Source: a virus. Taken from it: 64,000 nucleotides of DNA. The notes below the pieces were generated by a model. That model worked only from the letters and a program-made list of their open reading frames with translations, was not told the DNA's origin and made no database searches. The position numbers and the translations under genes were made by a program. Below, one piece after another: positions 1 to 16,305 of this stretch; the first letter of the stretch is position 1; the number at the start of each line of letters is the position of its first letter. The stretch lies in IMG/VR virus record IMGVR_UViG_3300045988_081205; one strand, given 5' to 3'.

Positions 1-19
1 ATAAAATGTTGGAAAATAC

Positions 20-48: not shown

Positions 49-61
49 ATAAGAAAGGTTA

Positions 62-140
62 ATAGAGGGTAGCTAACTTCTATTATTTAGGAGAGTTGCT
101 TATACCAACTCTCCACTTTTAATATTTCTTGTATAAGGAG
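62..140 (+). promoter_or_regulatory. structured 5' leader of HNH gene 1 (hairpin 1, terminator-like hairpin 2, loop-SD pairing)
   Basis: Hairpin 1 at 62-83 (ATAGAGG/CTTCTAT). Hairpin 2 at 90-114 (GGAGAGTTG/CAACTCTCC) followed by a T-rich run. Loop CTTATAC (99-105) is complementary to GTATAAG (131-137), which overlaps the SD AAGGAG (135-140). Homologous leaders lie at 2815-2901 and 15258-15336. Confidence 0.6.
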
Positions 141-151
141 AATATATACAT

Positions 152-826: not shown

Positions 827-914
827 AATGAAAAAGGATGAAAACGGTGAATGGGTGACGCTGAACGAAAAAATTGTGGAGATGAAATGTTGGAAGAAAT
901 TGGAGGTGTAAATA

Positions 915-1262
915 ATGGATACTGTTGAATTTTTGAATGAAGGTACTAGGATGTGTAATAATTATGAAGCATGTGTTGGTTGTCCTATGGAGGAAACAGA
1001 TGATTGCTGTATGGTTAATATGAATCTCAAGCAAATGATAAGTATTGTGGAGCAATGGGCAAAAGAACATCCTATAAAAACAAGGCAGAGCGAATTGCTT
1101 AAGCTATTTCCTGAAGCTAGTGTGCTATATGATGAATATCTAAATATCTGTCCAGCTCAACTTTCAAGTGAATGTCGTGATAAGGAAACTGGTGGATGTT
1201 ATGACCCCGGAATGGATTGTGGCAAATGCAAACGTGATTTTTGGCTAAAAGAAATTGAATGA
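915..1262 (+). CDS. hypothetical Cys-rich protein
   Basis: 115-aa ORF preceded by GGAGGTG. Several Cys pairs. No recognised family. Confidence 0.55.
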   Translation: MDTVEFLNEGTRMCNNYEACVGCPMEETDDCCMVNMNLKQMISIVEQWAKEHPIKTRQSELLKLFPEASVLYDEYLNICPAQLSSECRDKETGGCYDPGMDCGKCKRDFWLKEIE

Positions 1263-1270
1263 GGTGAATG

Positions 1271-1432
1271 ATGACAAATCAAGAAGCTGCCACATTGATA
1301 GTCAAGGAATATGGCAATTATAGAGGAATTTGTATTGAATATAAGCAATTTTCTTATATCAACCCAAATCTATCTGAAGCTATTGCTATGGCTATAGCAG
1401 CATTAAATAAAGAAAATAATAAGGAGGATTAA
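1271..1432 (+). CDS. hypothetical small protein (53 aa)
   Basis: Not in the ORF track (<60 aa). ATG follows GAGGTGA and fills the gap between neighbouring genes in the same orientation. Confidence 0.35.
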   Translation: MTNQEAATLIVKEYGNYRGICIEYKQFSYINPNLSEAIAMAIAALNKENNKED

Positions 1433-1440
1433 GTAAGTAA

Positions 1441-2073
1441 ATGAGTAAAGCAATTATGATTATTGGGGCAAGCGGTTCCGGTAAGACAACTAGCCTAGAG
1501 CATCTTGACCCAAAGCTGACATTTTACATTGATGCAGATGGTAAAGGACTAAGTTGGAAGGGATGGCGCAATCAATATAATAAGACTAATAAGAATTATT
1601 TTGTATGTGATGACCCTAATTCTATTTATAGTCTAATGCAGCAAATCAATGATAAACAGAAGCAGATTAAGTATCTTGTGATTGACACACTGAATGGCTG
1701 TATGGTAGCAGATGAGATGCGCCGAGCTAAGGAAAAGGCGTATGACAAGTGGATGGATTTAGCGCAGAGCGTATATAGCATTGTTGATTTCTCTAATAAG
1801 ATGCGTGATGATCTTACGGTGATTCTCATTGGTCATACTCAGACAAGCGATGATGGATTTACTTGTATGCTCACCAATGGGCGCAAGCTCAATAAGATTT
1901 GTCTTGAAAGCAAGATGACCACTGTGCTACTATCTCGAATCAACGATAATGGCGAATATGTGTTTGAAACAAGAGCAAAGAATAGCACGGCTAAGACCCC
2001 AAGAGGCGCGTTTGAAAAGGATGAAATTCCTAATGATATTATGTTAGTCATTGATGCTCTGAAAGATTTCTAA
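1441..2073 (+). CDS. P-loop ATPase, Sak4-like / AAA_24-type recombination protein
   Basis: Walker A GASGSGKTT at the N-terminus, ~210 aa. Followed by a DUF669-like gene, as is typical for phage Sak4 modules. Confidence 0.65.
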   Translation: MSKAIMIIGASGSGKTTSLEHLDPKLTFYIDADGKGLSWKGWRNQYNKTNKNYFVCDDPNSIYSLMQQINDKQKQIKYLVIDTLNGCMVADEMRRAKEKAYDKWMDLAQSVYSIVDFSNKMRDDLTVILIGHTQTSDDGFTCMLTNGRKLNKICLESKMTTVLLSRINDNGEYVFETRAKNSTAKTPRGAFEKDEIPNDIMLVIDALKDF

Positions 2074-2151
2074 CTACTCCAGCTAAAAAAGCTGAGTAAA
2101 ATATAAACAATCTATTTATTAAAATCAAATTAAAGCGAGGTTAAATTTATT

Positions 2152-2763
2152 ATGAAGCGAATCAATAATTGGGAGAATATTCAGGAAAGCACATCTTTTA
2201 AGCGTCTAACGCCAAATGGCTATATTGTTAAGATTCTCAATGTAGAAGATCATCCTGAAAAGGAATATCTCAAGATTTATTTTGACATCGTAAAGGGCGA
2301 TGATAAGGGTTATTTCAAGAAGCAGTATGACGGCGATACGCGCAAGGAACGCAAATGGCCCAATGCTGGTACATTCATCCGTTCTTATAAGGATTCTGCG
2401 GCATCTATGTTTAAGGGATTTATCAATGCCATTGAAAAGTCCAATAAGGGCTATCAGTGGAATTTTGACGAAAAGACGCTTGTCAATAAGGTCGTTGGTC
2501 TAATTATTGCCGATGAGCAGTATCAGAATCAGAAGGGTCAGGTTCGTGTCCGTAACTATGTCGCGGCCGTTCGCTCTGTTGAGACTATTGAAAAGGACGA
2601 ATATGAAATTCCTGCGCTCAAGGAGCTGACCACCACAAAGACCACAACTGCTCCTGCTAATGACCTAATCCCTGATTTTGGCGATGTGTTTAACACTACA
2701 CCAACCCCTGCTGAATCAGAAAATCCTTGGGATGATTCTGACGAGAATAATCCCTTCATGTAA
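2152..2763 (+). CDS. DUF669-like protein (putative ssDNA-binding partner of Sak4) with acidic C-terminal tail
   Basis: Position directly after the AAA_24-like ATPase. Acidic tail DDSDENNPF resembles SSB tails. Confidence 0.5.
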   Translation: MKRINNWENIQESTSFKRLTPNGYIVKILNVEDHPEKEYLKIYFDIVKGDDKGYFKKQYDGDTRKERKWPNAGTFIRSYKDSAASMFKGFINAIEKSNKGYQWNFDEKTLVNKVVGLIIADEQYQNQKGQVRVRNYVAAVRSVETIEKDEYEIPALKELTTTKTTTAPANDLIPDFGDVFNTTPTPAESENPWDDSDENNPFM

Positions 2764-2772
2764 AAATAATAC

Positions 2773-2801
2773 TTGACAAAAAGTTAATGCTGTGATATAA
2801 T
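2773..2801 (+). promoter_or_regulatory. sigma-A-type early promoter
   Basis: TTGACA 2773-2778, 17-nt spacer, TGaTATAAT ending at 2801. Confidence 0.75.
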
Positions 2802-2814
2802 TACAATAGAGGTT

Positions 2815-2901
2815 GATAAGAAGTTGCAAATTCTTATCATTTGAAGGAAGGTTGCTCGTCTCGACCTTCCTTACTCTACAAATTAAATCTAAGACGAGGA
2901 G
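2815..2901 (+). promoter_or_regulatory. structured 5' leader of HNH gene 2
   Basis: Hairpin 1 at 2815-2838 (GATAAGAA/TTCTTATC). Hairpin 2 at 2844-2872 (AAGGAAGGT/ACCTTCCTT). Loop CTCGTCT (2855-2861) is complementary to AGACGAG (2892-2898), which overlaps the SD GAGGAG. Confidence 0.6.
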
Positions 2902-2909
2902 ATTTTATT

Positions 2910-3473
2910 ATGGAAGAAATTTGGAAACCAGTTAAAGTTAGGGGAGAAGATTTCACAGGATATTATGAAGTTAGCAATTTAGGAAGAATTAAAAAATTGT
3001 CAACATGGAGTTGTGACGGTAAAAGATTTCTAAAAGAGCGGATTATGAAACAAACTCTTGATAAGAAGGGTTATTTGACTGTAAATTTGCAAAAGGGAAG
3101 TCGCCGTTTTACTCGTATATTTGTGCATAGAATAGTAGCAGAGGCATTTATTCCTAATCCAAATGATCTACCTCAAGTTGGGCATAAAGACGATACGGTA
3201 TTAAAGACTAATAACTGTATTGAAAATCTTTATTGGACAACTAACAAAGAAAATGCAAATACAGAAGGAAGAAAACAAAGATTATCTATGTCTCATATGG
3301 GCGCAAAAAATCATGGTGCTAGAGCTGTGATATGTGAAGGCATTACATTTCCAACGATGTCCGATTGCGCTAAACATTATAATATATTTGTTCAAAATAT
3401 ATGTGCGTGGTTAAATGGGAGAGAAAAAATGCCAAACCTATGGATTCAAAGAGGACTAAAAAGAGTTGATTAA
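2910..3473 (+). CDS. free-standing HNH homing endonuclease (NUMOD4-like + HNH_3-like)
   Basis: MEEIWKPV...GYYEVSNLGRIKKL and VHRIVAEAFIPNP...GHKDD...NLYWTTNKEN. The ATG at 2910 is preferred over the track start 2841 because of the SD GAGGAG and the alignment with 152-826. Confidence 0.85.
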   Translation: MEEIWKPVKVRGEDFTGYYEVSNLGRIKKLSTWSCDGKRFLKERIMKQTLDKKGYLTVNLQKGSRRFTRIFVHRIVAEAFIPNPNDLPQVGHKDDTVLKTNNCIENLYWTTNKENANTEGRKQRLSMSHMGAKNHGARAVICEGITFPTMSDCAKHYNIFVQNICAWLNGREKMPNLWIQRGLKRVD

Positions 3474-3499
3474 CGATAAGAATTCATAAAAATATTAAA

Positions 3500-3526
3500 G
3501 GCGGGGCTTGACAATCCCGCCTTTTT
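3500..3526 (+). terminator. intrinsic terminator
   Basis: GGCGGG (3500-3505) / CCCGCC (3516-3521) stem followed by TTTTT. Confidence 0.6.
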
Positions 3527-3536
3527 ATTATATGAT
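3508..3536 (+). promoter_or_regulatory. sigma-A-type promoter whose -35 lies in the terminator loop
   Basis: TTGACA 3508-3513, 17-nt spacer, TATGAT 3531-3536. Confidence 0.5.
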
Positions 3537-3555
3537 AACTGTGAGGTGATGATGC

Positions 3556-4185
3556 TTGAATAGATTTCTATGTGTAGCTCAACTGCAAGAACTGCGAATC
3601 GACCTATATCAGACCCATATGAAAGCCAAATTCAGCGTCATCACTAATCATCAATGCCTTACTATGAGCCAAACATTGAGCCGCAAATGGAATGAGCCGC
3701 AAATCAAATCATGGCTGACAATGGCACAATATATCCATCCACGTATAGACAGCTATATATATGTCAAAAATAAACATTATTATACAATGAAAAAATCTGA
3801 TATACCTACTAGGCTATTGGTATCAGGCAATATCAATGAATGGAAAAAATCATTATATTATAATGTGCAATATTGCCGTATAGTTGAATATAATGCAGCT
3901 GATAGCATGAATATAGAAATGGATGGGCAATGGCTGGATTCATGGAGATTCTTGAATATATGCGGCGATTCACCTAGAGTGTTTACTATCAAGCGTCCTG
4001 ACGGCTGTGAGGGCTGTATATGCCGATTGCGGCTTGAATATGATGCAGGATATAACATAGAGCAAAATCGGGTCATAGCGCATCCTAGCGGTCTTGGTGT
4101 GGTTGATTGCAAGAAAACAGATGCGGTTATGAGCCAAGAAGAAATTGATAAGTGGATGTTAGAATATGAGATAATTTCCTCTTGA
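3556..4185 (+). CDS. hypothetical protein
   Basis: 209-aa ORF (TTG start in the track; true start uncertain). No recognised motif. Confidence 0.5.
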   Translation: MNRFLCVAQLQELRIDLYQTHMKAKFSVITNHQCLTMSQTLSRKWNEPQIKSWLTMAQYIHPRIDSYIYVKNKHYYTMKKSDIPTRLLVSGNINEWKKSLYYNVQYCRIVEYNAADSMNIEMDGQWLDSWRFLNICGDSPRVFTIKRPDGCEGCICRLRLEYDAGYNIEQNRVIAHPSGLGVVDCKKTDAVMSQEEIDKWMLEYEIISS

Positions 4186-4210
4186 CAAATCAATCAACAT
4201 ATGATATACT
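4182..4210 (+). promoter_or_regulatory. sigma-A-type promoter
   Basis: TTGACA 4182-4187, 17-nt spacer, TGaTATACT ending at 4210. Confidence 0.7.
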
Positions 4211-4240
4211 TGGATTATCAAAAAGATGGAGGTAATAAAT

Positions 4241-4387
4241 ATGAAATGGGAAGCGTGGTATTATGACTATATCAATGGCAACAAGAAAACGTACATTTAC
4301 GTTGAAGCCGATTCTTTTGATGAGGCGATTGCTAAAGCTCGTCGTATTGACCTTAGAGTAAACGCGGCAAGAGTGGTAAGTGAATGA
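4241..4387 (+). CDS. hypothetical small protein (48 aa)
   Basis: ATG 9 nt after GGAGGT. The stop overlaps the next ATG (ATGA coupling at 4384). This makes the antisense track ORF 4190-4396 spurious. Confidence 0.5.
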   Translation: MKWEAWYYDYINGNKKTYIYVEADSFDEAIAKARRIDLRVNAARVVSE

Positions 4388-4866
4388 GCAAGCCACCTAC
4401 AGTTAAATGCCGCCAATGCGGTAAATCAACGCCAAAACAAGATGCAATCGAATATAAGCCTAAGTTCTATTTCTGCTGTGAACAATGTAGGCAGGATTAT
4501 ATCAATGCTCATATCGTTAAGCCCAAAGCAGAATCAAAAGATGATAGGCGCAAATTGCTGGATTATATACGTCAAGTTGCCCCTGATGCCAATATGCGGC
4601 TTGTAGGTATCCAGCTTGCTCAGTTGATGAAAGATAATCCTGATATGACATATGGCGGCATTGCTTATACTATCAGATATATCCATAAAGAGCTTGGAAA
4701 GGATATATCTCAATCGCCGCTTGGACTGGTCAAGTATAAGTATGATGAATGTAAAAAATATTATGCTTGGCTAAATCAGGTAAGACAGAATATACAGCAA
4801 TGGCAAGCTGAAGATGGAGTTGAGACGATTGTGAAAAGAAATGATGAGGAGGATGTGTTTGGATGA
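4384..4866 (+). CDS. hypothetical Zn-ribbon protein
   Basis: N-terminal CxxC...CCxxC. 160 aa. Confidence 0.6.
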   Translation: MSKPPTVKCRQCGKSTPKQDAIEYKPKFYFCCEQCRQDYINAHIVKPKAESKDDRRKLLDYIRQVAPDANMRLVGIQLAQLMKDNPDMTYGGIAYTIRYIHKELGKDISQSPLGLVKYKYDECKKYYAWLNQVRQNIQQWQAEDGVETIVKRNDEEDVFG

Positions 4867-5123
4867 AACATAAAATGATTGGATGTTCTGAAGAATGCCT
4901 AGAATTTGCCTGTTGCGATTTCTGCATCTATGTTCACCATGATTTTTTCTTTGATAAAGACGGTGATATTGTCCGTGGCGGACCAGTTGGATGTGGATTG
5001 CATGACGATGAGCGTCATCAAGATATCGCTGAAAGCTGTGGTCATTGTCCTGATTTCCATTGTTTTAGAGCACATGAAGATAATATGGTTGTAAAGGAGA
5101 TTGATGATGATGACGTGGTATAG
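4863..5123 (+). CDS. hypothetical Cys/His-rich protein
   Basis: 86-aa ORF, translationally coupled. TAG stop. Confidence 0.5.
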   Translation: MKHKMIGCSEECLEFACCDFCIYVHHDFFFDKDGDIVRGGPVGCGLHDDERHQDIAESCGHCPDFHCFRAHEDNMVVKEIDDDDVV

Positions 5124-5331
5124 TATTGGCAAAAATAGTAAACCAGATGATTATGAATGGGTGCTTGTTTCATTTCTTACAGAAGACAGTAGACAAAGAT
5201 GCTCTGGCACTTGTGTTGTAGCTGCACTTTGGGAAGATGATGAGGGATGTGCTATATGGTATGACGGTAATCGATTCTATAACATTCATACAACAGACCG
5301 TTGGGCATATATTGAATTGCCGGAGGAATAA
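5101..5331 (+). CDS. DUF551-like small protein
   Basis: The W...P...EWVLV...W...RWAYIELP pattern is shared with 8846-9079. Confidence 0.45.
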   Translation: MMMMTWYSIGKNSKPDDYEWVLVSFLTEDSRQRCSGTCVVAALWEDDEGCAIWYDGNRFYNIHTTDRWAYIELPEE

Positions 5332-5334
5332 TCA

Positions 5335-6807
5335 TTGCTCTATGACCAAAATTCTGTTAGGCTGCTATTAGGTTGTTTGCTAATTAAGCCATCTCTTGCT
5401 ATTTCTGATAAGTACCCTCTAAGCCGTGATGATTTTACGGTCGATTTTCATCTCAGATTATGGCAAGGGTGTGTTGCCCTAGCTAAGCGTGGAGCTGAGT
5501 CCATATCGTCACTAGACATTTATATGCTATGTAAGAACAATAAGCAGGTAGAGGATATATTCAAGTTAAATCAGTTAGACGATTTCATTGATACAGTCAA
5601 GCAGCTTGCTAATGTAGGTAATTTTGAGGTCTATTACAACAACACGCGCCGAGCCACATTACTTCGTTCTTACAAAAACGCTGGCTATAATGTAGACAAA
5701 TTTGAGCAAGACGATAAAGCGACCATAGAGGATATAGTACAATACTTTGACGCACAGCAAATAGCTATAAAAAAGCAATTTTATAAAGACAAGGATATAG
5801 ACGAGCTAAAAGCCGGTGATGGATTTGAAGCGGTTAAAGAGGGATTTAAGGCAGAGCCGCTATTCGGTGCAACGACTTTTAGTGAATATCTAAACACAGC
5901 AGCTAGAGGCTGGATTCCGGGGCAGCTATCTATCTATTCAGTCGGTTCAGGCGTAGGAAAGTCAACTATTGGCTTGGCTAATCTTGTGCAAGTATGTTGT
6001 CCTAGAATCTATGATATGGATAAGGGGCAATATGTAGACAATCCATGTTATCAACATAAAGCTGGTCTATATCTTCAATTTGAAATGGCTGGTGATACTG
6101 AAATTACGCCTAAAATTGTGGCTACAATTAGCGGCGTACCATGCTTTAGCATCTTGAATGGGCGGTATGAAGAAGGTGAAGAAGAGCGTGTGGATGAGGC
6201 TATTAAAATTCTGCATGAATCTAAGTTATATATCGTCACCATGCCCAATTATACTGTTGATTTGATTGAATCCTATGTAAAGGATTATGTAGTCAATAAG
6301 CAAGTGGGCTTCCTATGTTATGATTATATCGTTGAATCCTCATCTGTATCGAGCGACTTAGCTAAAAAGAATGGCGTATCTACTCGTTCAGATCAGGTGC
6401 TATCTGGCATAGCAAGTAAGCTCAAGGATTTAGCTGTTGAATATAATATCGCCGTCTTGACATTTACTCAGGTCAATGCTAATGCTATGACGCAAGAAAT
6501 TATGGATAGCGGCGTTGCGGCTGGTTCAAGAGCAATTCAGAACAAGGCTGATGTAGCTGGCGTAATCATGCCATTACGCCGTAAGGAGCAAGAGATAGCT
6601 GATATGATGATGGAGAAATATTCTGATAAGATAAAGCCAAATCGCGTATTACACCTCTATAAGATGCGCTTCTCACAGGTTGAGCAAGGTATTAAGATAT
6701 ATTTTAATCTTGATTTGAATACAGGTCGAACAAAGGATTGTTTTGTAACCACAAAATTCGATAATCCTTATCAATTAACTAAGACAAGGTTGGTGTATGC
6801 TAAATGA
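5335..6807 (+). CDS. replicative DNA helicase, DnaB-like
   Basis: N-terminal LLGCLLIKPSL-type DnaB N-domain. Walker A GSGVGKST. ~490 aa. TTG start. Confidence 0.8.
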   Translation: MLYDQNSVRLLLGCLLIKPSLAISDKYPLSRDDFTVDFHLRLWQGCVALAKRGAESISSLDIYMLCKNNKQVEDIFKLNQLDDFIDTVKQLANVGNFEVYYNNTRRATLLRSYKNAGYNVDKFEQDDKATIEDIVQYFDAQQIAIKKQFYKDKDIDELKAGDGFEAVKEGFKAEPLFGATTFSEYLNTAARGWIPGQLSIYSVGSGVGKSTIGLANLVQVCCPRIYDMDKGQYVDNPCYQHKAGLYLQFEMAGDTEITPKIVATISGVPCFSILNGRYEEGEEERVDEAIKILHESKLYIVTMPNYTVDLIESYVKDYVVNKQVGFLCYDYIVESSSVSSDLAKKNGVSTRSDQVLSGIASKLKDLAVEYNIAVLTFTQVNANAMTQEIMDSGVAAGSRAIQNKADVAGVIMPLRRKEQEIADMMMEKYSDKIKPNRVLHLYKMRFSQVEQGIKIYFNLDLNTGRTKDCFVTTKFDNPYQLTKTRLVYAK

Positions 6808-6977
6808 CATGGGTGATTTATGGAATAGCATTGTGTGTATCGTTTTTAGCCATTCTTTTTGGAGAATACGAATACAAGAGAACCAATAAATATAGCGATT
6901 TGCTCATATGCGGCATTGGTTGTGGTTTATTGGCGTTTACGTTGATGTTCGGCGCGACATTGATTTTTGTCTTATGA
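6804..6977 (+). CDS. small two-TM membrane protein (57 aa)
   Basis: Not in the track. ATGA-coupled to the helicase stop and TTATGA-coupled to the primase ATG. Two hydrophobic segments. Confidence 0.4.
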   Translation: MTWVIYGIALCVSFLAILFGEYEYKRTNKYSDLLICGIGCGLLAFTLMFGATLIFVL

Positions 6978-8023
6978 TCGACATTCAATCTCTTAAATCT
7001 CAGCTAACCGATGACCGCATTATAGAGCTAATGGATGCTCTAGGTGCTCCATTGATGAAGGCTGATAGCAACAATTTGATATTTCCAAGCATATGCCATC
7101 AGAGCGACCCGTTAGCTCATTCCGCTAAATTATGGCTATACCTCGATTCTATGCAATTCCACTGTTGGAGCTGCGGCTTTTCAGGTGATGCTATATCTCT
7201 AGTTCAACACGTCAAGCATCTTGACTTTAATCAAGCTGTCTCATATATCTGCTCAGTCCTACATCTACAAGTAGGGCAAATAGAGCAAAATGAGCAGCTT
7301 GATAATTGGGCTGAATTGCGCCGATTTTTACCTAATGCTGAGCCAGAGCCAGATAAGCTCTTGACATATGACAAGTCTATATTATCTCTATTTGACCATT
7401 TATATCCGCAAGAATGGCTAGATTATGGCATTTCAGTGGATATACTTGATAAATTTGGCATAGGCTGGTATGCGCGTCAGGCGTGTATTTCCATACCTGT
7501 TGTGTTTAATGGTCAACTAGTAGGCGTGAGAGGGCGATACACAAGAGAGCAGAATGTGGCTAAGGGTAAGTATAGACCAATATGTACGCTGGATGGGACA
7601 GTTCTAAAGTTGGCAACATCACAAGTCATGTATGGCTATGACCAAAATAAAGCCGCTATTGAAAAGTCACGCCAAGTAGTGCTATTTGAGAGTGAAAAGT
7701 CAGTACTAAAAGCGCCAAGTTACAATTTGCATAATGCTCTGGCCGTCTTTGGCTCTAATATAAGTAGACAACACATACAGCTATTACTAGAGCTAGGTGT
7801 GAATGATGTGGTGCTATGCATGGATAGCGACTATAAGCAAGTAGGTGATGATGAATTTAAGTTCTTTGTTGTCAAGATGAAGAAATTAGCAGCTAAGCTA
7901 AAGCCATTCTTTAACTGTTCGATAGTATATAACAATCAAGGCTATGATATGTATAAATGCAATATGATGGATATGCCATATGAGCAAGCTATGAAATTAT
8001 GGGAAAGTAGGGTGAGAGTATGA
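6974..8023 (+). CDS. DNA primase, DnaG-like (CHC2 zinc finger + TOPRIM)
   Basis: CHQ...HCWSCGFSGDAISLV zinc finger. TOPRIM-like VVLFESEKS and CMDSD. The ATG at 6974 is preferred over the track start 6908. Confidence 0.8.
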   Translation: MIDIQSLKSQLTDDRIIELMDALGAPLMKADSNNLIFPSICHQSDPLAHSAKLWLYLDSMQFHCWSCGFSGDAISLVQHVKHLDFNQAVSYICSVLHLQVGQIEQNEQLDNWAELRRFLPNAEPEPDKLLTYDKSILSLFDHLYPQEWLDYGISVDILDKFGIGWYARQACISIPVVFNGQLVGVRGRYTREQNVAKGKYRPICTLDGTVLKLATSQVMYGYDQNKAAIEKSRQVVLFESEKSVLKAPSYNLHNALAVFGSNISRQHIQLLLELGVNDVVLCMDSDYKQVGDDEFKFFVVKMKKLAAKLKPFFNCSIVYNNQGYDMYKCNMMDMPYEQAMKLWESRVRV

Positions 8024-8343
8024 GAACACCATGCAAGTATGCGCATGAAAACCGGTATGATAGATATGTAGACGGTAAAATTCGTGAAGTAATAATCAAT
8101 GAATGCTGGGCTACCAAAGAACCATTTGAATGTGACAGTAAATGTAAGGAGACGTGCGGTGTATATGAATCAGCCAATAAAGGCAAGGCGTTAAAATGGC
8201 TCAATGCAGGATACTTTGATGAATGGTATGGTTGTACTTGTAAATGCGCGAGATGTGGGGCTGAAGTATGTGGATGTGATGCCCGTAATTATTGCCCTAA
8301 TTGTGGTTACGAATACAAGGCATGGGATGGCAAAATTCTATAA
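8020..8343 (+). CDS. hypothetical Cys-rich protein
   Basis: 107-aa ORF with several CxxC pairs, coupled to the primase stop. Confidence 0.55.
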   Translation: MRTPCKYAHENRYDRYVDGKIREVIINECWATKEPFECDSKCKETCGVYESANKGKALKWLNAGYFDEWYGCTCKCARCGAEVCGCDARNYCPNCGYEYKAWDGKIL

Positions 8344-8352
8344 ATTTAATAC

Positions 8353-8381
8353 TTGACAATCAACCTCCTTTATGATATAAT
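8353..8381 (+). promoter_or_regulatory. sigma-A-type promoter
   Basis: TTGACA 8353-8358, 17-nt spacer, TGaTATAAT ending at 8381. Confidence 0.75.
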
Positions 8382-8408
8382 CACTATATCAACAATAAGG
8401 AGGTTGAT
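8359..8408 (+). promoter_or_regulatory. 12-bp inverted repeat pairing the promoter spacer with the Shine-Dalgarno of 8415-8849
   Basis: ATCAACCTCCTT (8359-8370) is the exact reverse complement of AAGGAGGTTGAT (8397-8408). Confidence 0.6.
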
Positions 8409-8414
8409 TTTATT

Positions 8415-8849
8415 ATGAGTAAATTCAAAGTAGGAGATAAGGTGGCTTATGTAACCAAGCCAGATGAAGAAATTGGCGAGGTGAATTGTGTCGTAGAGGA
8501 CAGATATGGTTGTCATATCTTTGTTGCGTTCAACAAAAAGAAAGTATATGAAATGCAACTAGCCGGTTATAACTATGATGAAGATAAGTTAGTTAAGATT
8601 GACGAGTATACCTTATCAGATGATGAAATCTATACCATGCTCAAGCCGAAGCTCGAAAGTATGTGTATGAAAACAGAATATCACAAATTATTGCCAACTG
8701 TATTTGAATTAGAATTTGAATCACAAAAGGATTATGACCCATATGTTCCAGAAAGTGATGTAATTAAAGCTATTGCTCTAGCATATCGTTCTGGTTATCT
8801 TAGAGCTAAGAAAGGAAGACCATTTAAGATTGGAGGAGAGAAAGAATGA
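8415..8849 (+). CDS. hypothetical protein
   Basis: 144-aa ORF with a strong SD. Confidence 0.65.
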   Translation: MSKFKVGDKVAYVTKPDEEIGEVNCVVEDRYGCHIFVAFNKKKVYEMQLAGYNYDEDKLVKIDEYTLSDDEIYTMLKPKLESMCMKTEYHKLLPTVFELEFESQKDYDPYVPESDVIKAIALAYRSGYLRAKKGRPFKIGGEKE

Positions 8850-9079
8850 TTGAATGGCATAAAGTAACAGATGAATTGCCACCATATGATACGCCAGTTC
8901 TTGTGTCTGGTTCAGACACAGGCACATATCTAGAGGAATATGTTCATGTAATGAAAATATTTATTAAGAATCATACATATCTGTGGCAATGCATGTGGGA
9001 CGCTGATGTGTATGAAGTATATGAAGATGATTATTGGGCATATATTAACTTACCAAAAAAGGACGGTGATTCAGATTAA
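8846..9079 (+). CDS. DUF551-like small protein
   Basis: EWHKV...LPPYDTPVLV...YWAYINLP pattern. Confidence 0.45.
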   Translation: MIEWHKVTDELPPYDTPVLVSGSDTGTYLEEYVHVMKIFIKNHTYLWQCMWDADVYEVYEDDYWAYINLPKKDGDSD

Positions 9080-10685
9080 GATTCATCCACTACTAGATTC
9101 CCTTAATGAAGTCACATTTTTAAGGGAATACTTAACCGCTTGTGGCATAGCTGATGTTGACTCATATCTCAATCCAGATAGTATTGAATATCAATCACAT
9201 GATATGTATAAAAATATGGACAAGGCGATTAGCTTATTCAATTATCATATGCCAAATGGAAAGATTGTGATTGTTCAAGACAGCGATAATGATGGCAGTT
9301 GTTCAGCAGCAATTACATATATGCTATGTCGTGAATTTGGCGCAACTGATATTGAAGTGTTATATCATGCAAATAAGCAACATGGATTATCTGACCTCAT
9401 GCCGCAAATTATCACTGAATCACCTAGCTTAGTTATTGTTCCTGATGCTGGCAGTAATAATATCTCAGAATGTCAAGAGTTGTTTCAGCGCAATATTGCC
9501 GTATTGATTTTAGACCATCATAACATTGAGTCACATAATTATTGTGCTATTGTGGTAAACCCATTTAATGATGAACAGGATGAACATATCAATAAATCAA
9601 TCTCTGGTACAGGTGTTGTAGAAAAATTTGCTTGTGCTCTTGGCTCAAATCAATCTTTCAAAGACCTCGTGGCTATTAGCCTAATCTCTGATATTTGCAG
9701 CTTACGTTCATCTGAGAACCGTAAATATGTATATGATGGCTTGACTAATCCAACTAATCCATTTATCAAATATTGCTTAGAGCATTGTTGCAATCGTGGC
9801 GTCAATCCAGAGGGTGTGGCATTTGGTATTGCACCACTTGCTAATGCTCTTGCTCGTAGTGATGACCAGTCTACCAAGCGGCTATTTTTTGATGCACTGA
9901 TTGGTAAGATTGAACCAGAAGTCGCTGTGAAGGCTATGAAAGCCGTAAAGTCCAAGCAGGATTATCAGGTTAAAAAGGTCGTAGATAAGCTGTCAGATGG
10001 GCTTGACACGTCTCACAAGGTCATTATCGGCTTTGGTGAGCCTGAGAATAAATCCTATTTAGGGCTTGTAGCTAATAAATTCTGTGGCAAATATAATAAG
10101 CCTACGTTCTTGCTAAGAGAGCTAAATAGCACAACATGGTCTGGCTCGATGCGCAGTCCTATTGATTTGCTTGAGATTATCAATGAATCAGGGTTGGCTA
10201 AATGTCAAGGACATGATGCTGCAGCTGGTATCACTGTCAAGAAATCAAATCTCAAGCGATTTGCACGATTCTTAGATGGGCTGGATTTGGACGTAGAGCC
10301 AGATATTGAAATAGCGGCTCAGATTGAGCCTAATAATATCACACACAATCTTGCAAATGTGTGTGTAGAAAATAATATCCTATGGGGCAAGGATATAAAC
10401 AAGCCGTTATTTCATTGTACTTTAACATCTCCGCAGATTTATGTATATCGTAATCGCTCAACTACTGTCAAGCTGATTCAGGATGGCATTGAGTTTATCA
10501 AATTCTTTGTTAATAATGAAGAAGCAAGCCAATTTGAATCAGCTCAAGGTAAATCCATAGAGGTAGTAGTATCGCTTGGATTGAATGAATATAATGGACA
10601 AATTAAGCCTCAAGCTATTATTGAGCGATATGAGATTATTGATAAGACAGAAAATGAAATTGATTGGAGTGAATATTTTAATTGA
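9066..10685 (+). CDS. RecJ-like DHH-family ssDNA exonuclease
   Basis: VIVQDSDNDGSCSAA (DHH motifs I/II), PDAGSN and LDHHN motifs. The start is uncertain: GTG 9066 is chosen, while the track ORF opens at 9006. Confidence 0.7.
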   Translation: MIQIKIHPLLDSLNEVTFLREYLTACGIADVDSYLNPDSIEYQSHDMYKNMDKAISLFNYHMPNGKIVIVQDSDNDGSCSAAITYMLCREFGATDIEVLYHANKQHGLSDLMPQIITESPSLVIVPDAGSNNISECQELFQRNIAVLILDHHNIESHNYCAIVVNPFNDEQDEHINKSISGTGVVEKFACALGSNQSFKDLVAISLISDICSLRSSENRKYVYDGLTNPTNPFIKYCLEHCCNRGVNPEGVAFGIAPLANALARSDDQSTKRLFFDALIGKIEPEVAVKAMKAVKSKQDYQVKKVVDKLSDGLDTSHKVIIGFGEPENKSYLGLVANKFCGKYNKPTFLLRELNSTTWSGSMRSPIDLLEIINESGLAKCQGHDAAAGITVKKSNLKRFARFLDGLDLDVEPDIEIAAQIEPNNITHNLANVCVENNILWGKDINKPLFHCTLTSPQIYVYRNRSTTVKLIQDGIEFIKFFVNNEEASQFESAQGKSIEVVVSLGLNEYNGQIKPQAIIERYEIIDKTENEIDWSEYFN

Positions 10686-10848
10686 GCAATTTAAGAAAAT
10701 GGACTAAGGCGATTAGTATGGTTACATCTGTTATACTATATACACTGATTTTACGTGGTTATAGCAACAGATTGGTGTTGTTGGTAGTGGCTGTTATTGC
10801 TTGTATGACAAATAGCCTAGATGGTTGGATTGGAGGGGATGAGTCTAA

Positions 10849-11028
10849 TTGAGTAGAGCAGAAAGAAATCGTCGCAAACGGATTGAGCGTCCCCTAAAAT
10901 ATGCTCCTATCAAATGCCCAAATTGCGGCTTAATGGTAGATGAAAAATATGTAGTTGACATAAATTCTACCTGTCCTATTTGTGGTAATGAGTTATTTGC
11001 AGAATTAAAGAAAATGATTGAAAAATAA
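10849..11028 (+). CDS. hypothetical Zn-ribbon protein (59 aa)
   Basis: TTG start after GGAGGGGA. CPNCG...CPICG. The antisense track ORF 10845-11081 is considered spurious. Confidence 0.4.
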   Translation: MSRAERNRRKRIERPLKYAPIKCPNCGLMVDEKYVVDINSTCPICGNELFAELKKMIEK

Positions 11029-11041
11029 TTAAAATAGGGTA

Positions 11042-11070
11042 TTGACAAAGCCTCCTGTTCATGGTATACT
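11042..11070 (+). promoter_or_regulatory. sigma-A-type promoter
   Basis: TTGACA 11042-11047, 17-nt spacer, TGgTATACT ending at 11070. Confidence 0.75.
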
Positions 11071-11092
11071 TGATTTATCAAAGAACAGGAGG
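11051..11092 (+). promoter_or_regulatory. 10-bp inverted repeat pairing the promoter spacer with the Shine-Dalgarno of 11101-11361
   Basis: CCTCCTGTTC (11051-11060) is the exact reverse complement of GAACAGGAGG (11083-11092). Confidence 0.6.
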
Positions 11093-11100
11093 TTGTTTTA

Positions 11101-11361
11101 ATGCAAGACGTATTAACCTATGAAGCATGGCTCGATGCTGTATGTCATATCTGTAATAGCTTGTTGAAAGCAAATGTAAGCATAACAGGCAATAACGAAT
11201 TTAAGGTGACAGCTACAAAATATCGTTGGATTACATTTGTTGATTGCATTGGATTTGAAGTAATGTACAATGAAGGCTTTGAGCCAGCATTTGGTGCAAC
11301 TAAGCTGATGGAAATTATTATTGATAGATGGGAACAACTGCTGGTTGAGGAGGATAAATAA
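11101..11361 (+). CDS. hypothetical protein
   Basis: 86-aa ORF, SD GGAGG 9 nt upstream. Confidence 0.6.
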   Translation: MQDVLTYEAWLDAVCHICNSLLKANVSITGNNEFKVTATKYRWITFVDCIGFEVMYNEGFEPAFGATKLMEIIIDRWEQLLVEEDK

Positions 11362-12056
11362 TGCAATATATGGGTGGCAAAAGCCGCATTTCTAAACAAA
11401 TTGCAGAGGTATTAAATTCAGCTATCAACAAAGATACACCGTTTGTAAGCCTGTTTTGCGGCTCATGTGCTATTGAATCAAAAGTACAAGCAGATGTTAA
11501 AATTCTTAATGACAAGCATCCATATCTCATTGCTATGTGGCAAGCACTACAAAATGGCTGGACACCGCCTGATGTTGTGACCAAAGAAGAATATTATCGT
11601 GTTAAAGCTAATATGGACGAAAATCCTGCATTGACTGGATTTGTTGGATTTGGTTGCTCATTCGGCGGAAAATGGTTTGGAGGTCTAGCAAGCAATAAAA
11701 AAGGCGATAATTATTGTGCAAGAGCAGAGCGTAGTTTGCTCAAAGATTTGCGCGGAGTACAATCTGCTACATTCACTTGCCTTGACTATCATGACGTAGA
11801 AATCCCGGATGGTGCGGTTGTATATTGTGACCCACCCTATGCCAATACGACGGGATATACAGTTGGACAATTTGATACGAATGAATTTTGGTATTATATG
11901 CGTCAGCTGTCTAAGCGATGTGATGTATATATCAGTGAGGAATCTGCGCCTGATGATTTTGAATGTGTATGGTCACAAGAATTAACGAGAACGCTTGACT
12001 TCAATAAATCCAATCAACCAAAGAAAGTAGAAAAATTGTTCAAATATAAGGGATAA
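11361..12056 (+). CDS. DNA N6-adenine methyltransferase, Dam-like (D12 class)
   Basis: N-terminal YMGGKSR and catalytic DPPY (YCDPPYANT). Confidence 0.8.
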   Translation: MQYMGGKSRISKQIAEVLNSAINKDTPFVSLFCGSCAIESKVQADVKILNDKHPYLIAMWQALQNGWTPPDVVTKEEYYRVKANMDENPALTGFVGFGCSFGGKWFGGLASNKKGDNYCARAERSLLKDLRGVQSATFTCLDYHDVEIPDGAVVYCDPPYANTTGYTVGQFDTNEFWYYMRQLSKRCDVYISEESAPDDFECVWSQELTRTLDFNKSNQPKKVEKLFKYKG

Positions 12057-12057
12057 T

Positions 12058-15000
12058 ATGCAAACAGTAAAATTAACCCCAATGCGCATGATATTCAATA
12101 ACCCTGAATCCAATTTCTCAATTATATCATGCAGCACTAAGGATGAAACAATAGAAATCAACCCTCAATATGGCACAATCAGCCTAAAAGGAACTGGCAT
12201 TGCCGATCTGAAAATGGGGCAATCCATTGATTGTATCATAGAGCCATGTGTGGATGATAAATACAAATACAGCTATAAATTCATTGGCTTTGCTGGATTT
12301 GTAGCTAAAGATGGCAAATTCAACCTAACTGAAAAAGCCGAGCTACAGACATTGCGTAGTTTAATGACTAATGGGCAAGCTGAATCATGTCATGCCGCAT
12401 ATCCTCATTTTGTCAGTATGGTGCTGAATGGTGAAGCCGACAAGCTAGACTACAAAAAAATTCGTGGCGTAGGCAAGGTGTTATTGCCAAGATATATTGA
12501 TAAAATCAAGACGATCAACAAGCGTGTGGAATTTATGGGAGAAACATATGCTTGGGGCATTGAGCATGATGAGGATATAAACAAAATCGCCGCGGCATAT
12601 AAGAACGTATATGGATTCAGCCAAGATATAAATACCAATCCATATGCTATTATGATTAACTTGCTTGAATGGTCATTTGATAGAGCAGATAGGGTGATAA
12701 CTAAGAAAACAGCAAAATGGCTGGATAGCTATGAACGATGTGAGGCGGCTACTATCTATGCTCTAAAGCATAATGAGCTGGACGGCAATACAAGGATGCA
12801 AGCCAAGATGTTGTTTGATATGGTAAAGCGCAAAGCCCCTCAATGCGTTCATCATCTCCTCGATGTTGTGACGAAATCGGCGCAAGTACACTATGACGCT
12901 CCTAGCCAAAACACAGCTCTACAAGTCACATATAGTGCTGAACAGCATATTGCTGATGTTATCAAGAAAAAAATAGCCAATCCACATTACTATCCTATGG
13001 ATTGGCAGAAGTTTACAAGTGTAGACGGTTTAGAGCTGACTGATGAACAAACGCAGATTCTTGAAATGGCTTGTAAACAAGATGTTATGATGCTGACTGG
13101 TTCGGCTGGTTGTGTTGATTGCGATACTGAATTTTTTACTGGTACTGGTTGGAAGCGAATTGCGGATTATCAAGACGGCGACAGGGTGCTTCAGTACAAC
13201 GAGGACGGAACAGCAGAACTTGTAAATCCCATTGCTTATATCAAGAAGACATGCAATACGTTATGGCATTTTGAGACGCTTCGAGGATTAAATCAAACTG
13301 TCTGTGATGATCATAGAATTATATATGAAACAAGAGACGGTGTATTAAAAGAATGTAATATTGAACAACTAAAACAAATGCACTTACCGTCAACCAAGAA
13401 TTTCCAAGGGAGGTTTCTCACAACATTCAACCTTGGTGGTTCTGGTATAGATTTAAATGAATGGCAAATTCGTCTAATGTGCGCGGTTTTGGCAGATGGG
13501 CATTTCAACGCCGGTAATAAAAATAGCACAAGATGTACATTTCATATAAAAAAGCAACGTAAGAAAGATAGACTGATTTATCTTTTCAATAAAAATGGAC
13601 TTGAATATAAAGAACATGAAAGTACAGAAGAAGGATATACTGACTATCATGTGTATGTTCCAAGGAGAGAAAAGCAATTTACAGAGTATTGGTATGGGTG
13701 TTCTAATGAACAATTAAAGATAATTGTAGATGAGGTTGTTTATTGGGATGGATGTATAAGATACACAAAAAATAATACTAAGTATTTAACTTATTGTTCA
13801 TCTATAAAATCAGACGCAGATTTCATTCAATATGCAGCATCCGCGATTGGAATTAGAGCGTCTATAAGCACTTGTAATAGAATTGGTGAAATCAAGCATT
13901 TGAACGGGAAAGAATATATTAGAAAGACAAATGTATATACGGTTCATTTTTCCAACAGAACAAAAGTAGGATTGTGTTCAGATAATAGAAGTAAATGTAC
14001 TAAAACGCCCATAACTCAAGTGCCAACCACTGATGGATATAAATACTGCTTTACAGTACCATCACATATGCTCGTACTAAGAAGAAAAGATTGCATTTTC
14101 ATTACTGGCAACTGTGGCAAAACAACAAGTATGCAAGCACTTGTTAATATGCTAGATAGCAATGGGTACACATATACTCTACTTGCCCCGACAGGAATAT
14201 CTAGCAAAAAATTACGAGAAGCAACGCAAAAAGAAGCGTCCACCATCCATATGTTTTTAACCATGAGTGAGAACCTAGGAGATTATCTAATCATAGATGA
14301 AGCCAGTCAAATTAGCGTCCATTTGCTATCAATGCTATTTGATAAGGTAACAGACCGTACTAAGATAATCTTCATAGCCGACCCATCTCAGCTTGCATCT
14401 ATTGCTTGCGGCAACATTGTTGAGGATATGCTTGATAGCGGCATCGTGCCTGTATGTAACTTGACTAAGGTATTCAGATATAACACATCTGGCATTATTA
14501 CTATAGCTACTGATGTACGAAATGGAGTAAATGACCATCTGACAGATACTTTCACAGATTATAAGTTCATTGAAACTGATACATTAGTAATCAAGCAAAT
14601 TGAGCAAGAATATGCGCGGCTCTTAGCAGATGGATACAGTAAGGATGATGTGCTGATTCTATCTCCATTCAATAAGGGTGATGTTGGCTCATTGGCTATC
14701 AATGCGGCGATTCAAGCCAAATTCAATCCAAATGAATTAAGCAAGGTTGGGCATACTGTCAATGATGTACCTATATATTTCAAAGTTGGCGATAAGGTAA
14801 TCAATAAAAAGAATGAATATGCTATGCCGCTTGTTGATGATGATACGGCTTTTGTAGCAAATGGCGATATTGGCACAGTGATGGAAATTGTGCCTGATGA
14901 AAAAGAGCCATATATGATTGTGCGATATGATTGCGGCGATTGTATAGTAGATAAGGCGCATATCAAGAATACGCTACTTAGTTATTGTGTCAGCATCCAT

Positions 15001-15210
15001 TCAGCGCAAGGTAGCCAAGCAAAGGCTGTGATTGTAGTGATTGATAGAAGCCACGTAAGGATGCTATCGCGCAACTTGTGCTATACAGCGGTATCACGCG
15101 CACAAGAGCGGCTAATATTGATTGGAGATGAGGCGGCTATTCAAGATGGGCTAAAGGTGCAAGAGGAAAAGGAAAGGGATACTTATTTGCGATATTTTTT
15201 AATAAAATAA
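12058..15210 (+). CDS. RecD/Dda-like SF1 DNA helicase precursor containing an intein in the P-loop
   Basis: The Walker A motif is split as GSAG | intein | CGKTTS. C-terminal SIHSAQGSQ and YTAVSRAQERL helicase motifs. Confidence 0.8.
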   Translation: MQTVKLTPMRMIFNNPESNFSIISCSTKDETIEINPQYGTISLKGTGIADLKMGQSIDCIIEPCVDDKYKYSYKFIGFAGFVAKDGKFNLTEKAELQTLRSLMTNGQAESCHAAYPHFVSMVLNGEADKLDYKKIRGVGKVLLPRYIDKIKTINKRVEFMGETYAWGIEHDEDINKIAAAYKNVYGFSQDINTNPYAIMINLLEWSFDRADRVITKKTAKWLDSYERCEAATIYALKHNELDGNTRMQAKMLFDMVKRKAPQCVHHLLDVVTKSAQVHYDAPSQNTALQVTYSAEQHIADVIKKKIANPHYYPMDWQKFTSVDGLELTDEQTQILEMACKQDVMMLTGSAGCVDCDTEFFTGTGWKRIADYQDGDRVLQYNEDGTAELVNPIAYIKKTCNTLWHFETLRGLNQTVCDDHRIIYETRDGVLKECNIEQLKQMHLPSTKNFQGRFLTTFNLGGSGIDLNEWQIRLMCAVLADGHFNAGNKNSTRCTFHIKKQRKKDRLIYLFNKNGLEYKEHESTEEGYTDYHVYVPRREKQFTEYWYGCSNEQLKIIVDEVVYWDGCIRYTKNNTKYLTYCSSIKSDADFIQYAASAIGIRASISTCNRIGEIKHLNGKEYIRKTNVYTVHFSNRTKVGLCSDNRSKCTKTPITQVPTTDGYKYCFTVPSHMLVLRRKDCIFITGNCGKTTSMQALVNMLDSNGYTYTLLAPTGISSKKLREATQKEASTIHMFLTMSENLGDYLIIDEASQISVHLLSMLFDKVTDRTKIIFIADPSQLASIACGNIVEDMLDSGIVPVCNLTKVFRYNTSGIITIATDVRNGVNDHLTDTFTDYKFIETDTLVIKQIEQEYARLLADGYSKDDVLILSPFNKGDVGSLAINAAIQAKFNPNELSKVGHTVNDVPIYFKVGDKVINKKNEYAMPLVDDDTAFVANGDIGTVMEIVPDEKEPYMIVRYDCGDCIVDKAHIKNTLLSYCVSIHSAQGSQAKAVIVVIDRSHVRMLSRNLCYTAVSRAQERLILIGDEAAIQDGLKVQEEKERDTYLRYFLIK
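13111..14112 (+). mobile_element. intein (334 aa) with LAGLIDADG homing-endonuclease domain
   Basis: Starts CVDCDTEFF (block A-like) and ends FITGN followed by Cys +1. Internal LMCAVLADGHF and IVDEVVYWDGC LAGLIDADG-like motifs. Removal restores GSAGCGKTT. Confidence 0.8.
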
Positions 15211-15214
15211 TATA

Positions 15215-15243
15215 TTGACAAATATCTATATATGTGATATAAT
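15215..15243 (+). promoter_or_regulatory. sigma-A-type early promoter
   Basis: TTGACA 15215-15220, 17-nt spacer, TGaTATAAT ending at 15243. Confidence 0.75.
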
Positions 15244-15257
15244 ATAAATAAGGGTAA

Positions 15258-15336
15258 ATGGAAGGTGTACAACTTCTATTCTTTAAGGAGAACGCTTATC
15301 TCGTTCTCCTACCTTAATATTTTCTAAGATAAGGAG
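15258..15336 (+). promoter_or_regulatory. structured 5' leader of HNH-like gene 3
   Basis: Hairpin 1 at 15258-15279 (ATGGAAG/CTTCTAT). Hairpin 2 at 15287-15309 (GGAGAACG/CGTTCTCC). Loop CTTATCT (15295-15301) is complementary to AGATAAG (15327-15333), which overlaps the SD AAGGAG. Confidence 0.6.
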
Positions 15337-15347
15337 AAATATGTGTT

Positions 15348-16019
15348 ATGAGTAAATTCAAAAATTTGACAGGAATGAGATTTGGGAAACTAACAGCGGT
15401 TAAAATAGTAAAAAATTGTGAGCATAAGTGTAAAAGTGTAATTTGGCAATGCAAATGTGATTGCGGAAATATAGTGAACGTTAGAAGTAGTAATTTAATA
15501 AACGGACATACAAAATCCTGTGGATGTATAAGAAAAGAAATAATCATGAACAGAGACAAAGAACGAGCGATTCATAATGATTGTAACTCGAGGCTTTATA
15601 GAATTTGGCATGGTATGAAAAATAGATGTAATAATCCAAACGCTTACAACTATAAAAATTATGGTGGTAGAGGTATTACGATTTGTCCAGAATGGGAAGA
15701 ATTTATTCCATTTAGAGAATGGTCCAACAGCAACGGTTATGCAGACAATCTTACTATTGATAGAATTGACGTCAATGGAAATTATTGCCCTGAAAATTGT
15801 AGATGGGCTGATATAAAGACCCAAAATAACAATACCACTAGAAACAGATTGCTAACAGCGTTTGGAGAAACAATGAATGTTGCTCAGTGGAGTGAAAAGG
15901 TAGGTATAAAAAGAGGAGTTATATATACTAGAATCGATACTTATAAATGGGATGTGGAAAAAGCTCTAACAACACCAGTTGAGCAAAGAAAGCCTAGAAT
16001 TAAAGGAGATGCTGATTAA
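15348..16019 (+). CDS. putative free-standing homing endonuclease (HNH/AP2-associated family)
   Basis: RLYRIWHGMKNRCNNP..YKNYGGRGITICPEW and IDRIDVNGNYCPENCRWADIKTQNNN motifs. Own promoter and a leader like the two NUMOD4-HNH genes. Confidence 0.6.
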   Translation: MSKFKNLTGMRFGKLTAVKIVKNCEHKCKSVIWQCKCDCGNIVNVRSSNLINGHTKSCGCIRKEIIMNRDKERAIHNDCNSRLYRIWHGMKNRCNNPNAYNYKNYGGRGITICPEWEEFIPFREWSNSNGYADNLTIDRIDVNGNYCPENCRWADIKTQNNNTTRNRLLTAFGETMNVAQWSEKVGIKRGVIYTRIDTYKWDVEKALTTPVEQRKPRIKGDAD

Positions 16020-16301
16020 ATGACGGTTGGTGAATTAAGGAAACGGCTTGAAAGATATAACGACGATGAAATTATTGACATGAAGTGCTTAGTTGACAAC
16101 AATTACTATAAAGGATATATTAAAGATGTCTATAAGCTATTCGTGTCAAAGGCACAGAAAGAGCAACCAGTGACCATTGAATTAAAAGTAGATTGGAATT
16201 TATCCATCAGACAGAGATTTGATATGTTGGGTAAAGCAGTAGAAGATGCTATTGACCGTAACTCAACAGAGCTTACAAATATTGCATATGGAGGACGCTA
16301 A
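16020..16301 (+). CDS. hypothetical protein
   Basis: 93-aa ORF, TAAATG coupling. Confidence 0.55.
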   Translation: MTVGELRKRLERYNDDEIIDMKCLVDNNYYKGYIKDVYKLFVSKAQKEQPVTIELKVDWNLSIRQRFDMLGKAVEDAIDRNSTELTNIAYGGR

Positions 16302-16305
16302 TTAA

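Follow-up and report, generated by a model that had tools for sequence, protein, structure and literature searches.

Two sites in the window (the whole stretch of 64,000 nucleotides analysed here) pair the SD of a gene with a complementary arm lying inside that gene's own promoter, and we lean towards the view that each is a compact promoter/leader/SD cassette that would insulate against transcriptional read-through by SD occlusion. What is observed are the sequences, the predicted folds, their conservation and covariation, and an exclusive association with promoters; from these we infer where transcription starts, that read-through RNA is made and how translation is affected. An initial annotation of the first site had proposed a read-through-OFF/own-promoter-ON logic, and the predictions that it makes at the sequence level all hold, in the sequence itself, in the predicted folds and in comparison with relatives.

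The window belongs to an uncultured gut phage with a genome of roughly 90 kb. Its replication module occupies the plus strand, where a DnaB helicase, a primase, a RecJ-like exonuclease, a methyltransferase and an exonuclease V/Dda-type helicase are encoded. On the minus strand lie many long ORFs, the large terminase among them, in a block that we take to serve structure and packaging. Among cultured phages, Enterocloster phages are the nearest (protein identity 48% for the terminase and 30% for RecJ), which places the cassettes outside the T4-type myoviruses. A megablast search of positions 7000–12000 against cultured phages gave zero matches; an IMG/VR contig is the nearest record, and related contigs number about 35. 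In five relatives, the pattern TTGACA-17-TATAAT (at most one mismatch) occurs 20–25 times per genome, with 18–22 occurrences on one strand, compared with 0–2 matches per genome for a control pattern. These promoters are therefore real features.

Site 1 (8353–8417) starts only 9 nt after the stop codon of the upstream ORF, counted to the −35 hexamer, and comprises the following parts:

8020–8343, plus strand: upstream ORF of 107 aa, Cys-rich, matching no family; stop codon at 8341–8343
8353–8358, plus strand: −35 hexamer TTGACA
8358–8370, plus strand: 5′ arm AATCAACCTCCTT, an anti-SD segment in the promoter spacer, complement of the 3′ arm
8373–8381, plus strand: extended −10 TGaTATAAT, of which 8373–8379 is also the 5′ half of an inner helix
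8385–8391, plus strand: TATATCA box, the 3′ half of this 7-bp inner helix
8397–8409, plus strand: 3′ arm AAGGAGGTTGATT, containing the SD GGAGG (8399–8403)
8408–8416, plus strand: U-rich tail TTTTATTAT, the stretch from helix to start codon and a possible terminator U tract
8415–8849, plus strand: gene 8415, the first of the site 1 unit, an ORFan of 144 aa with its ATG at 8415

As first noticed in the initial annotation, ATCAACCTCCTT (8359–8370) sits inside the 17-nt spacer between TTGACA and TGaTATAAT and is the perfect reverse complement of AAGGAGGTTGAT (8397–8408), in the 3′ arm that holds the SD of gene 8415. The perfect helix extends one base beyond the 12 originally described, to 13 bp (8358–8370/8397–8409). 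The promoter around it is a perfect TTGACA-17-TGnTATAAT consensus, the 5′ arm AATCAACCTCCTT is similar to the 3′ tail of 16S rRNA, and the putative transcription start, A8388, would fall within the TATATCA box (8385–8391).

The same architecture had been said to recur further downstream, and it does so at site 2 (11042–11103) with an equivalent helix of 12 bp. Here 13 nt separate the upstream stop codon from the −35, and the parts are:

10849–11028, plus strand: upstream ORF of 59 aa with weak zinc-ribbon matches, all below the Pfam cut-offs
11042–11047, plus strand: −35 hexamer TTGACA
11049–11060, plus strand: 5′ arm AGCCTCCTGTTC, in the promoter spacer
11062–11070, plus strand: extended −10 TGgTATACT
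11083–11094, plus strand: 3′ arm GAACAGGAGGTT, containing the SD GGAGG (11088–11092)
11095–11100, plus strand: U-rich tail GTTTTA; in the predicted fold, the AUG is also covered, by a second helix
11101–11361, plus strand: first gene of the site 2 unit, an ORFan of 86 aa with its ATG at 11101

The two arms, AGCCTCCTGTTC and GAACAGGAGGTT, form 11 Watson–Crick pairs and one G·U pair. Downstream of the first gene (11101–11361) follow a methyltransferase gene and then exonuclease V/helicase genes.

Folding predictions separate the two kinds of RNA that these sites could give. In the RNAfold calculation proposed as a check in the initial annotation, read-through RNA has an MFE of −24.1 kcal/mol (z −6.6) at site 1 and −29.0 kcal/mol (z −5.6) at site 2; both folds leave no base of the SD unpaired, and 0 of 200 shuffles fold as well at either site. 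RNA beginning after the −10, which had been expected to leave the SD free, folds at −3.7 (site 1) and −5.3 (site 2), indistinguishable from its shuffles; opening the ribosome-binding region is predicted to cost about 20–21 kcal/mol on read-through RNA versus about 7 on own-promoter RNA. In the partition function, GGAGG has a P(unpaired) of 0 on read-through RNA; the values for own-promoter RNA are about 0.9 for four of the five GGAGG bases at site 1 and about 0.5–0.8 at site 2, the latter for a segment that is one base off and corresponds to GAGGT. The own-promoter RNA of site 1, starting AUCAAC, can pair with GUUGAU, with most of GGAGG predicted to stay unpaired. At promoter 4182, which served as a negative control, such a fold was not found (z +0.9). 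Inverted repeats of at least 11 nt within 60 nt number only 14 in the 64 kb, and sites 1 and 2 are two of them. In Rfam, the window has no match at the gathering threshold for either site, and positions 1–17000 have none at E ≤ 1.

On the reading that we lean towards, RNA from the upstream operon would carry both arms and form a bipartite hairpin: an outer helix of 12–16 bp would join the −35/spacer region to the SD region, and an inner helix of 5–7 bp, which would shorten the loop, would join the extended −10 (TGATA) to a TATCA box at about +1 to +11. The hairpin would bury the SD, and at site 2 the AUG as well, such that the first gene would not be initiated on read-through mRNA. The embedded sigma-A-type promoter, a perfect or near-perfect consensus with its −10 in the loop, would start RNA there, at about 8388 and 11077; the 5′ arm precedes every plausible start, and such transcripts would have this arm missing and the SD free. 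The first gene, a variable small ORFan, and any genes translationally coupled to it would then be expressed from their own promoter only. The U-rich tail 3′ of the helix probably adds partial intrinsic termination of read-through; SD occlusion is likely to be the common denominator and termination an additional output.

Read-through from upstream is expected from the layout of the sites. The initial annotation saw no terminator ahead of site 1, and we likewise found no separate one between the upstream ORF and the site 1 promoter; a canonical terminator within 150 nt upstream is present in 0 of 23 arm cassettes. In cassettes with an assignable upstream ORF, its stop codon mostly lies 5–12 nt from the −35. 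With the upstream terminator absent and the stop codon this near to the −35, transcripts should therefore run into the cassettes. The embedded promoters and the nearest upstream ones (4182, 8353) are all of the TTGACA-17-TATAAT type. Because upstream and embedded promoters share this host sigma-A type, the role would be insulation rather than an early/late switch. The same likeness also weighs against an insulator, since with promoters of one class upstream and inside, the benefit of a purely translational block is less obvious than in T4. A further point against it is that the cassette is tied to position and not to a gene, a pattern that suits an operon-boundary element at least as well as it suits translational control of one gene.

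Two additional candidates were considered and rejected. One was unmasking of the SD by a ribosome terminating at the upstream stop codon: the helix begins 15 nt (site 1) or about 10–11 nt or more (family B, the site 2 family described below) after this codon, distances judged to be just out of reach of the ribosome footprint. The other was a YonO-type late polymerase as the source of read-through: the late genes lie on the other strand, behind the bidirectional hairpin at 22549–22606. This hairpin, an imperfect inverted repeat of 27 nt, is located where the plus-strand early block and the minus-strand block converge, and is likely a bidirectional terminator.

Helices of this kind go together with promoters. 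Among 196 unique GGAGG gene starts from seven genomes, a helix of at least 10 bp that includes the SD and reaches a segment within 75 nt upstream is found at 13 of the 22 starts preceded by a consensus promoter versus 0 of the 174 others. Comparison of relatives gives the same picture at single loci: homologues of genes 8415 and 11101 that have an upstream promoter always have the anti-SD arm as well, and where a different gene lies directly upstream of the homologue, promoter and arm are both absent. Whole-genome scans of six relatives, together with all loci retrieved, yielded 380 unique promoter-like cassettes. The ungapped helix between −35/spacer and leader measures 3–7 bp in most of them; a separate group, made up almost entirely of anti-SD cassettes, has helices of 10–16 bp.

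The anti-SD cassettes of related IMG/VR phages fall into at least five families that differ in the sequence and register of their arms:

Family A (site 1): 5′ arm AUCAACCUCCUU, 3′ arm AAGGAGGUUGAU
Family B (site 2): 5′ arm (G)ACAACCUCCUG or GACAACCUCCUG; 3′ arm CAGGAGGUUGU(U) or CAGGAGGUUGUU
Family C (an unusual SD, copied by the arm): 5′ arm AACCGCUCC, 3′ arm GGGGCGGUU
Family D: B-like
Family E (distant phages L021 and L022): 5′ arm AACCUCCUUGGU, 3′ arm ACCAAGGAGGUU

In one family, the unusual SD GGGGCGG is matched by the arm CCGCUCC. Family B, whose helix often extends into the −35, is almost invariant from the −10 to the SD, and the 17-nt spacer is its most variable part; all eight spacer variants form an arm duplex with the SD region at −18 to −25 kcal/mol. 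Covariation is seen at one family B pair, which is A-U in L026, G·U in the window and G-C in L048, and family C shows C-to-U and G-to-A changes that both keep the pairing. Most arm mismatches are G·U and thus compatible with plus-strand RNA only; disruptive changes occur in three cassettes (L018, L037 and G004:10506). A simulation of random substitutions within families was not significant (fractions 0.06–1.0, rough Fisher combination about 0.12). In these comparisons, what speaks for selection is the link to promoters and the independence of families, registers and lineages, not the substitutions within families.

The inner helix between TGATA of the extended −10 and the TATCA box (about +1 to +11) is conserved, and it is present in arm-less cassettes too. 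RNAalifold, applied to an ungapped family B alignment, recovered only this inner helix and a short hairpin of the own transcript; it misses the outer helix because the latter occupies two registers, and pairs were hence counted by script. More generally, a TATCA(A) box complementary to TGATA lies about 5–11 nt after the −10 in approximately 38 of 132 unique strong promoters, including those of arm-less cassettes such as G001:61277, G006:79567 and window position 4182.

The cassette fills the intergenic space with an AT-rich upstream region, a strong sigma-70-like promoter, a stem-loop overlapping this promoter, the SD and the ATG. It is tied to its genome position, after the same upstream ORF, whereas the gene that follows is highly variable: family B cassettes stand ahead of at least eight different small ORFans, and in other genomes the same genes occur without a cassette.

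Cassettes that keep fixed operon boundaries while their first gene varies could also serve mainly to end the upstream transcript. In this alternative, the hairpin and its U-rich tail are chiefly an intrinsic terminator of the upstream operon, packed around the next promoter in the manner of the PeSLs, the promoter-early stem-loop cassettes of RB49/phi1 T4-type phages (Arbiol et al, 2010; PMC2839356). Own-promoter RNA, being without the 5′ arm, would escape termination, and the SD would be included merely as the sole G+C-rich element in a short leader. Termination at the hairpin, a possibility that the initial annotation did not consider, would lead to the same OFF/ON result by a different route. 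We regard this as possible, if on the whole unlikely. PeSL stem-loops in sigma-70 promoters of T4-type phages have been shown to terminate (PMC2839356), and a canonical terminator overlaps promoter 3508 in the phage studied here. All 13 of 13 arm cassettes have six T in the eight nucleotides after GGAGG, a number that 180 promoter-less starts do not reach (mean 2.4, maximum 5). The G+C-rich core (CCUCC or CCGCUCC) with an A-rich 5′ side and a U-rich 3′ side is likewise found in many terminators, and the inner helix reduces the effective loop to 5–9 nt.

Compared with a canonical terminator, however, the sites combine a G+C-rich stem core and 4–6 U in the next 8 nt with a loop of 22–32 nt that contains the inner helix. 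A loop of this length with internal loops is beyond the usual criteria for intrinsic terminators, and a terminator scan (loop 3–8) made no call at the sites. The base of the site 1 helix is rich in A-U pairs. Much of the T-richness reflects pairing with GACAA of the −35, and extending the helix leaves few U in families B and C; in the unrelated L119, the tail is A-rich and a U tract after the helix is absent. Moreover, a stop signal downstream of a promoter gives that promoter no protection from occlusion. A terminator also does not need the SD, yet every family uses it, and the helix was never seen without a promoter (0 of 174). The ordinary terminator of the same phage at 3497–3524 lies wholly upstream of a start site; termination alone would therefore not require the SD.

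Two minor rivals account for the paired arms in other ways. The bipartite helix (about 20 bp with an internal loop) could be a processing site for an RNase III-type, double-strand-specific enzyme, which would cut the early polycistronic RNA. The upstream message would then end in a stabilising 3′ hairpin, and the downstream SD would be either inactivated or released. RNase III-type processing is known from T7 early RNA and from SP82 early RNA in Bacillus, and both the geometry of outer and inner helix and the intergenic position directly before a ribosome-binding site recall such phage sites. Nevertheless, registers, loop sizes and internal loops vary between families, conserved features of a cleavage site are not present, RNase III would find the outer helix by itself rather short, and the inclusion of the SD and the occurrence at promoters only would be left unexplained, making this reading highly improbable.

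We consider it very improbable that the inverted repeat acts as DNA, be it as the operator of a dimeric phage regulator that shuts early promoters or as a recombination/cruciform site for cassette shuffling. The −10 and the start site do lie between the two halves of the repeat, first-gene exchange has its hot spots at the cassettes, and the TGATA...TATCA inner repeat is found in arm-less cassettes too. Yet outside the SD core, the arms are wholly different between families and offer no common protein site, their spacing is variable, many G·U positions would be A·C mismatches in DNA or on the other strand, and the arms follow each gene's own SD, the unusual GGGGCGG included.

The design by which a read-through hairpin would occlude the SD is already known from phage T4 and from insertion sequences; here it is seen in an unrelated phage group. 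The analogy to T4 drawn in the initial annotation proves accurate (PMC3014915, PMC2988022). T4-type phages nest promoters in SD-sequestering hairpins at e (lysozyme), soc, 49, I-TevI/II/III, segB and Aeh1 mobE (PMC3014915, PMC2988022), and gene e, which has the same geometry, shows a 100-fold translational effect (PMC3014915). As in these genes, the SD and/or the AUG would be buried in a helix on long transcripts, and the promoter lies in the DNA that encodes the 5′ strand, such that locally started RNA, which in T4 is translated, would be without that strand. In T4, however, the inner promoter is a late one (TATAAATA, gp55-dependent) and provides a temporal switch, whereas here it is a full host-type TTGACA-17-TGnTATAAT, the arm fills the −35/−10 spacer, and inner and upstream promoters belong to the same class rather than to different temporal classes. 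The present cases also come from an unrelated gut phage with Firmicutes-type signals.

In IS10/Tn10, and likewise in IS50, an upstream segment of the incoming transcript pairs with the transposase ribosome-binding site, and the element's own promoter starts inside the structure; the protection of IS10/Tn10 from external transcription was reportedly described by Davis, Simons and Kleckner in 1985 (cited in PMC13181058). In IS200, a terminator and an SD hairpin form a pair (PMC3196728, PMC4513863). The cassettes resemble all three in that externally started RNA carries the SD-pairing segment and the own promoter lies inside the structure. These insertion sequences, however, have weak transposase promoters and keep transposition low, whereas consensus-strength early promoters head operons here.

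In layout, the cassettes match the PeSLs. These, too, are short intergenic cassettes (AT-rich upstream region, strong sigma-70-type promoter, overlapping stem-loop, SD and ATG) that follow directly on the upstream stop codon. Many copies occur in the early region, where they precede variable ORFans and fall at gene-swap junctions; their proposed role is to prevent the build-up of upstream transcription. In contrast to the present arms, PeSLs have a compact G/C hairpin placed between the promoter boxes or over them; these hairpins were tested as terminators, and SD pairing was not described for them. The arms analysed here are about 26–32 nt apart, enclose the −10 and the start site, and use the SD itself as the 3′ arm, and the phage belongs to a different lineage, not to the T4-type myoviruses.

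Matches outside this clade come from an IMG/VR scan with TTGACA..CCTCC..TGnTATAAT, which matched at least 119 stretches. Among the matches listed, 19 non-redundant CCTCC-spacer promoters have GGAGG downstream; extra complementarity of at least 5 pairs is present in 8 of these 19 (1.06 expected), and at least 8 extra flanking pairs are present in 5 of the 19 (0.11 expected). For three of the five, L083, L119 and L154, similarity to the clade of the present phage is not detectable. Taken together, the excess of cases with at least 8 pairs and the unrelatedness of these three contigs argue for a read-through design that, judged from sequence, is recurrent and convergent.

A different arrangement is seen in 11 unrelated IMG/VR contigs (L080, L085, L093, L098, L109, L111, L125, L129, L132, L152 and L157), whose TTGACA-CCTCC-TTCG/TACG/TGCG-GGAGG-TGT-TATAAT promoters hold a whole CCUCC/GGAGG tetraloop hairpin within the 17-nt spacer. 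The next gene is conserved and starts MSHTDPIIDKI; the geometry is PeSL-like, unlike that of sites 1 and 2. A scan of the 3′ half (50001–99962) of the Enterocloster phage PMBT24 gave a single spacer-to-leader helix, at L198:31395 on the minus strand, where the promoter spacer AATTAAATTGTTGT can pair with ATAACAATTTAATT of the leader. This helix stops 8 nt short of GGAGG and so leaves out the SD, which makes PMBT24 no ready model for experiments.

A broader interpretation, which we offer tentatively, is that the cassettes are the Firmicutes-signal counterpart of the T4-type PeSLs: portable self-insulating units whose hairpin would both occlude the SD and terminate, which would mark slots for swapping small early ORFans, and which would have evolved independently in several unrelated lineages (L083, L119 and L154). 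If this is true, arrays of strong early promoters in tandem would, as a general and convergent rule, be built with anti-SD spacer arms. With tandem early promoters of consensus strength, transcription would otherwise accumulate on the downstream genes, and a hairpin that forms in incoming RNA only would let each unit's expression be set by its own promoter at zero cost in genome space. That T4-type phages, insertion sequences, a gut-phage clade and three unrelated viral contigs all show the design points to convergence. For annotation, a CCTCC-like spacer run that extends the complement of the next SD would indicate a unit boundary and a likely slot of ORFan exchange; for engineering, the cassette could be a compact insulator part for synthetic operons in Gram-positive hosts.

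Further regulatory elements were noted in the same phage. The canonical terminator at 3497–3536 (AAAGGCGGGG-CTTGACAA-TCCCGCCTTT and a T run) is interlocked with promoter 3508: the −35 of this promoter forms the terminator loop, and the promoter spacer is taken up by the 3′ arm and the T run. This arrangement, which is kept in four relatives, is a second way in this phage of overlapping a stop signal with the next promoter. At 59498–59790, four consensus promoters, two per strand and divergent, are interleaved with perfect inverted repeats of 13–19 nt (59573–59585/59630–59642 and 59675–59693/59704–59722); this cluster is likely an early-gene control region. Three copies of a consensus promoter followed by a conserved two-hairpin leader lie at 20–150, 2773–2900 and 15215–15345; these leaders are without an Rfam match, and their second hairpin consists of GGAGAGTTG...CAACTCTCC and a T run. 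Finally, a drum RNA (Rfam RF02958; 54.2 bits versus a gathering score of 43) is found on the minus strand at 50792–50906, just after the large terminase gene.
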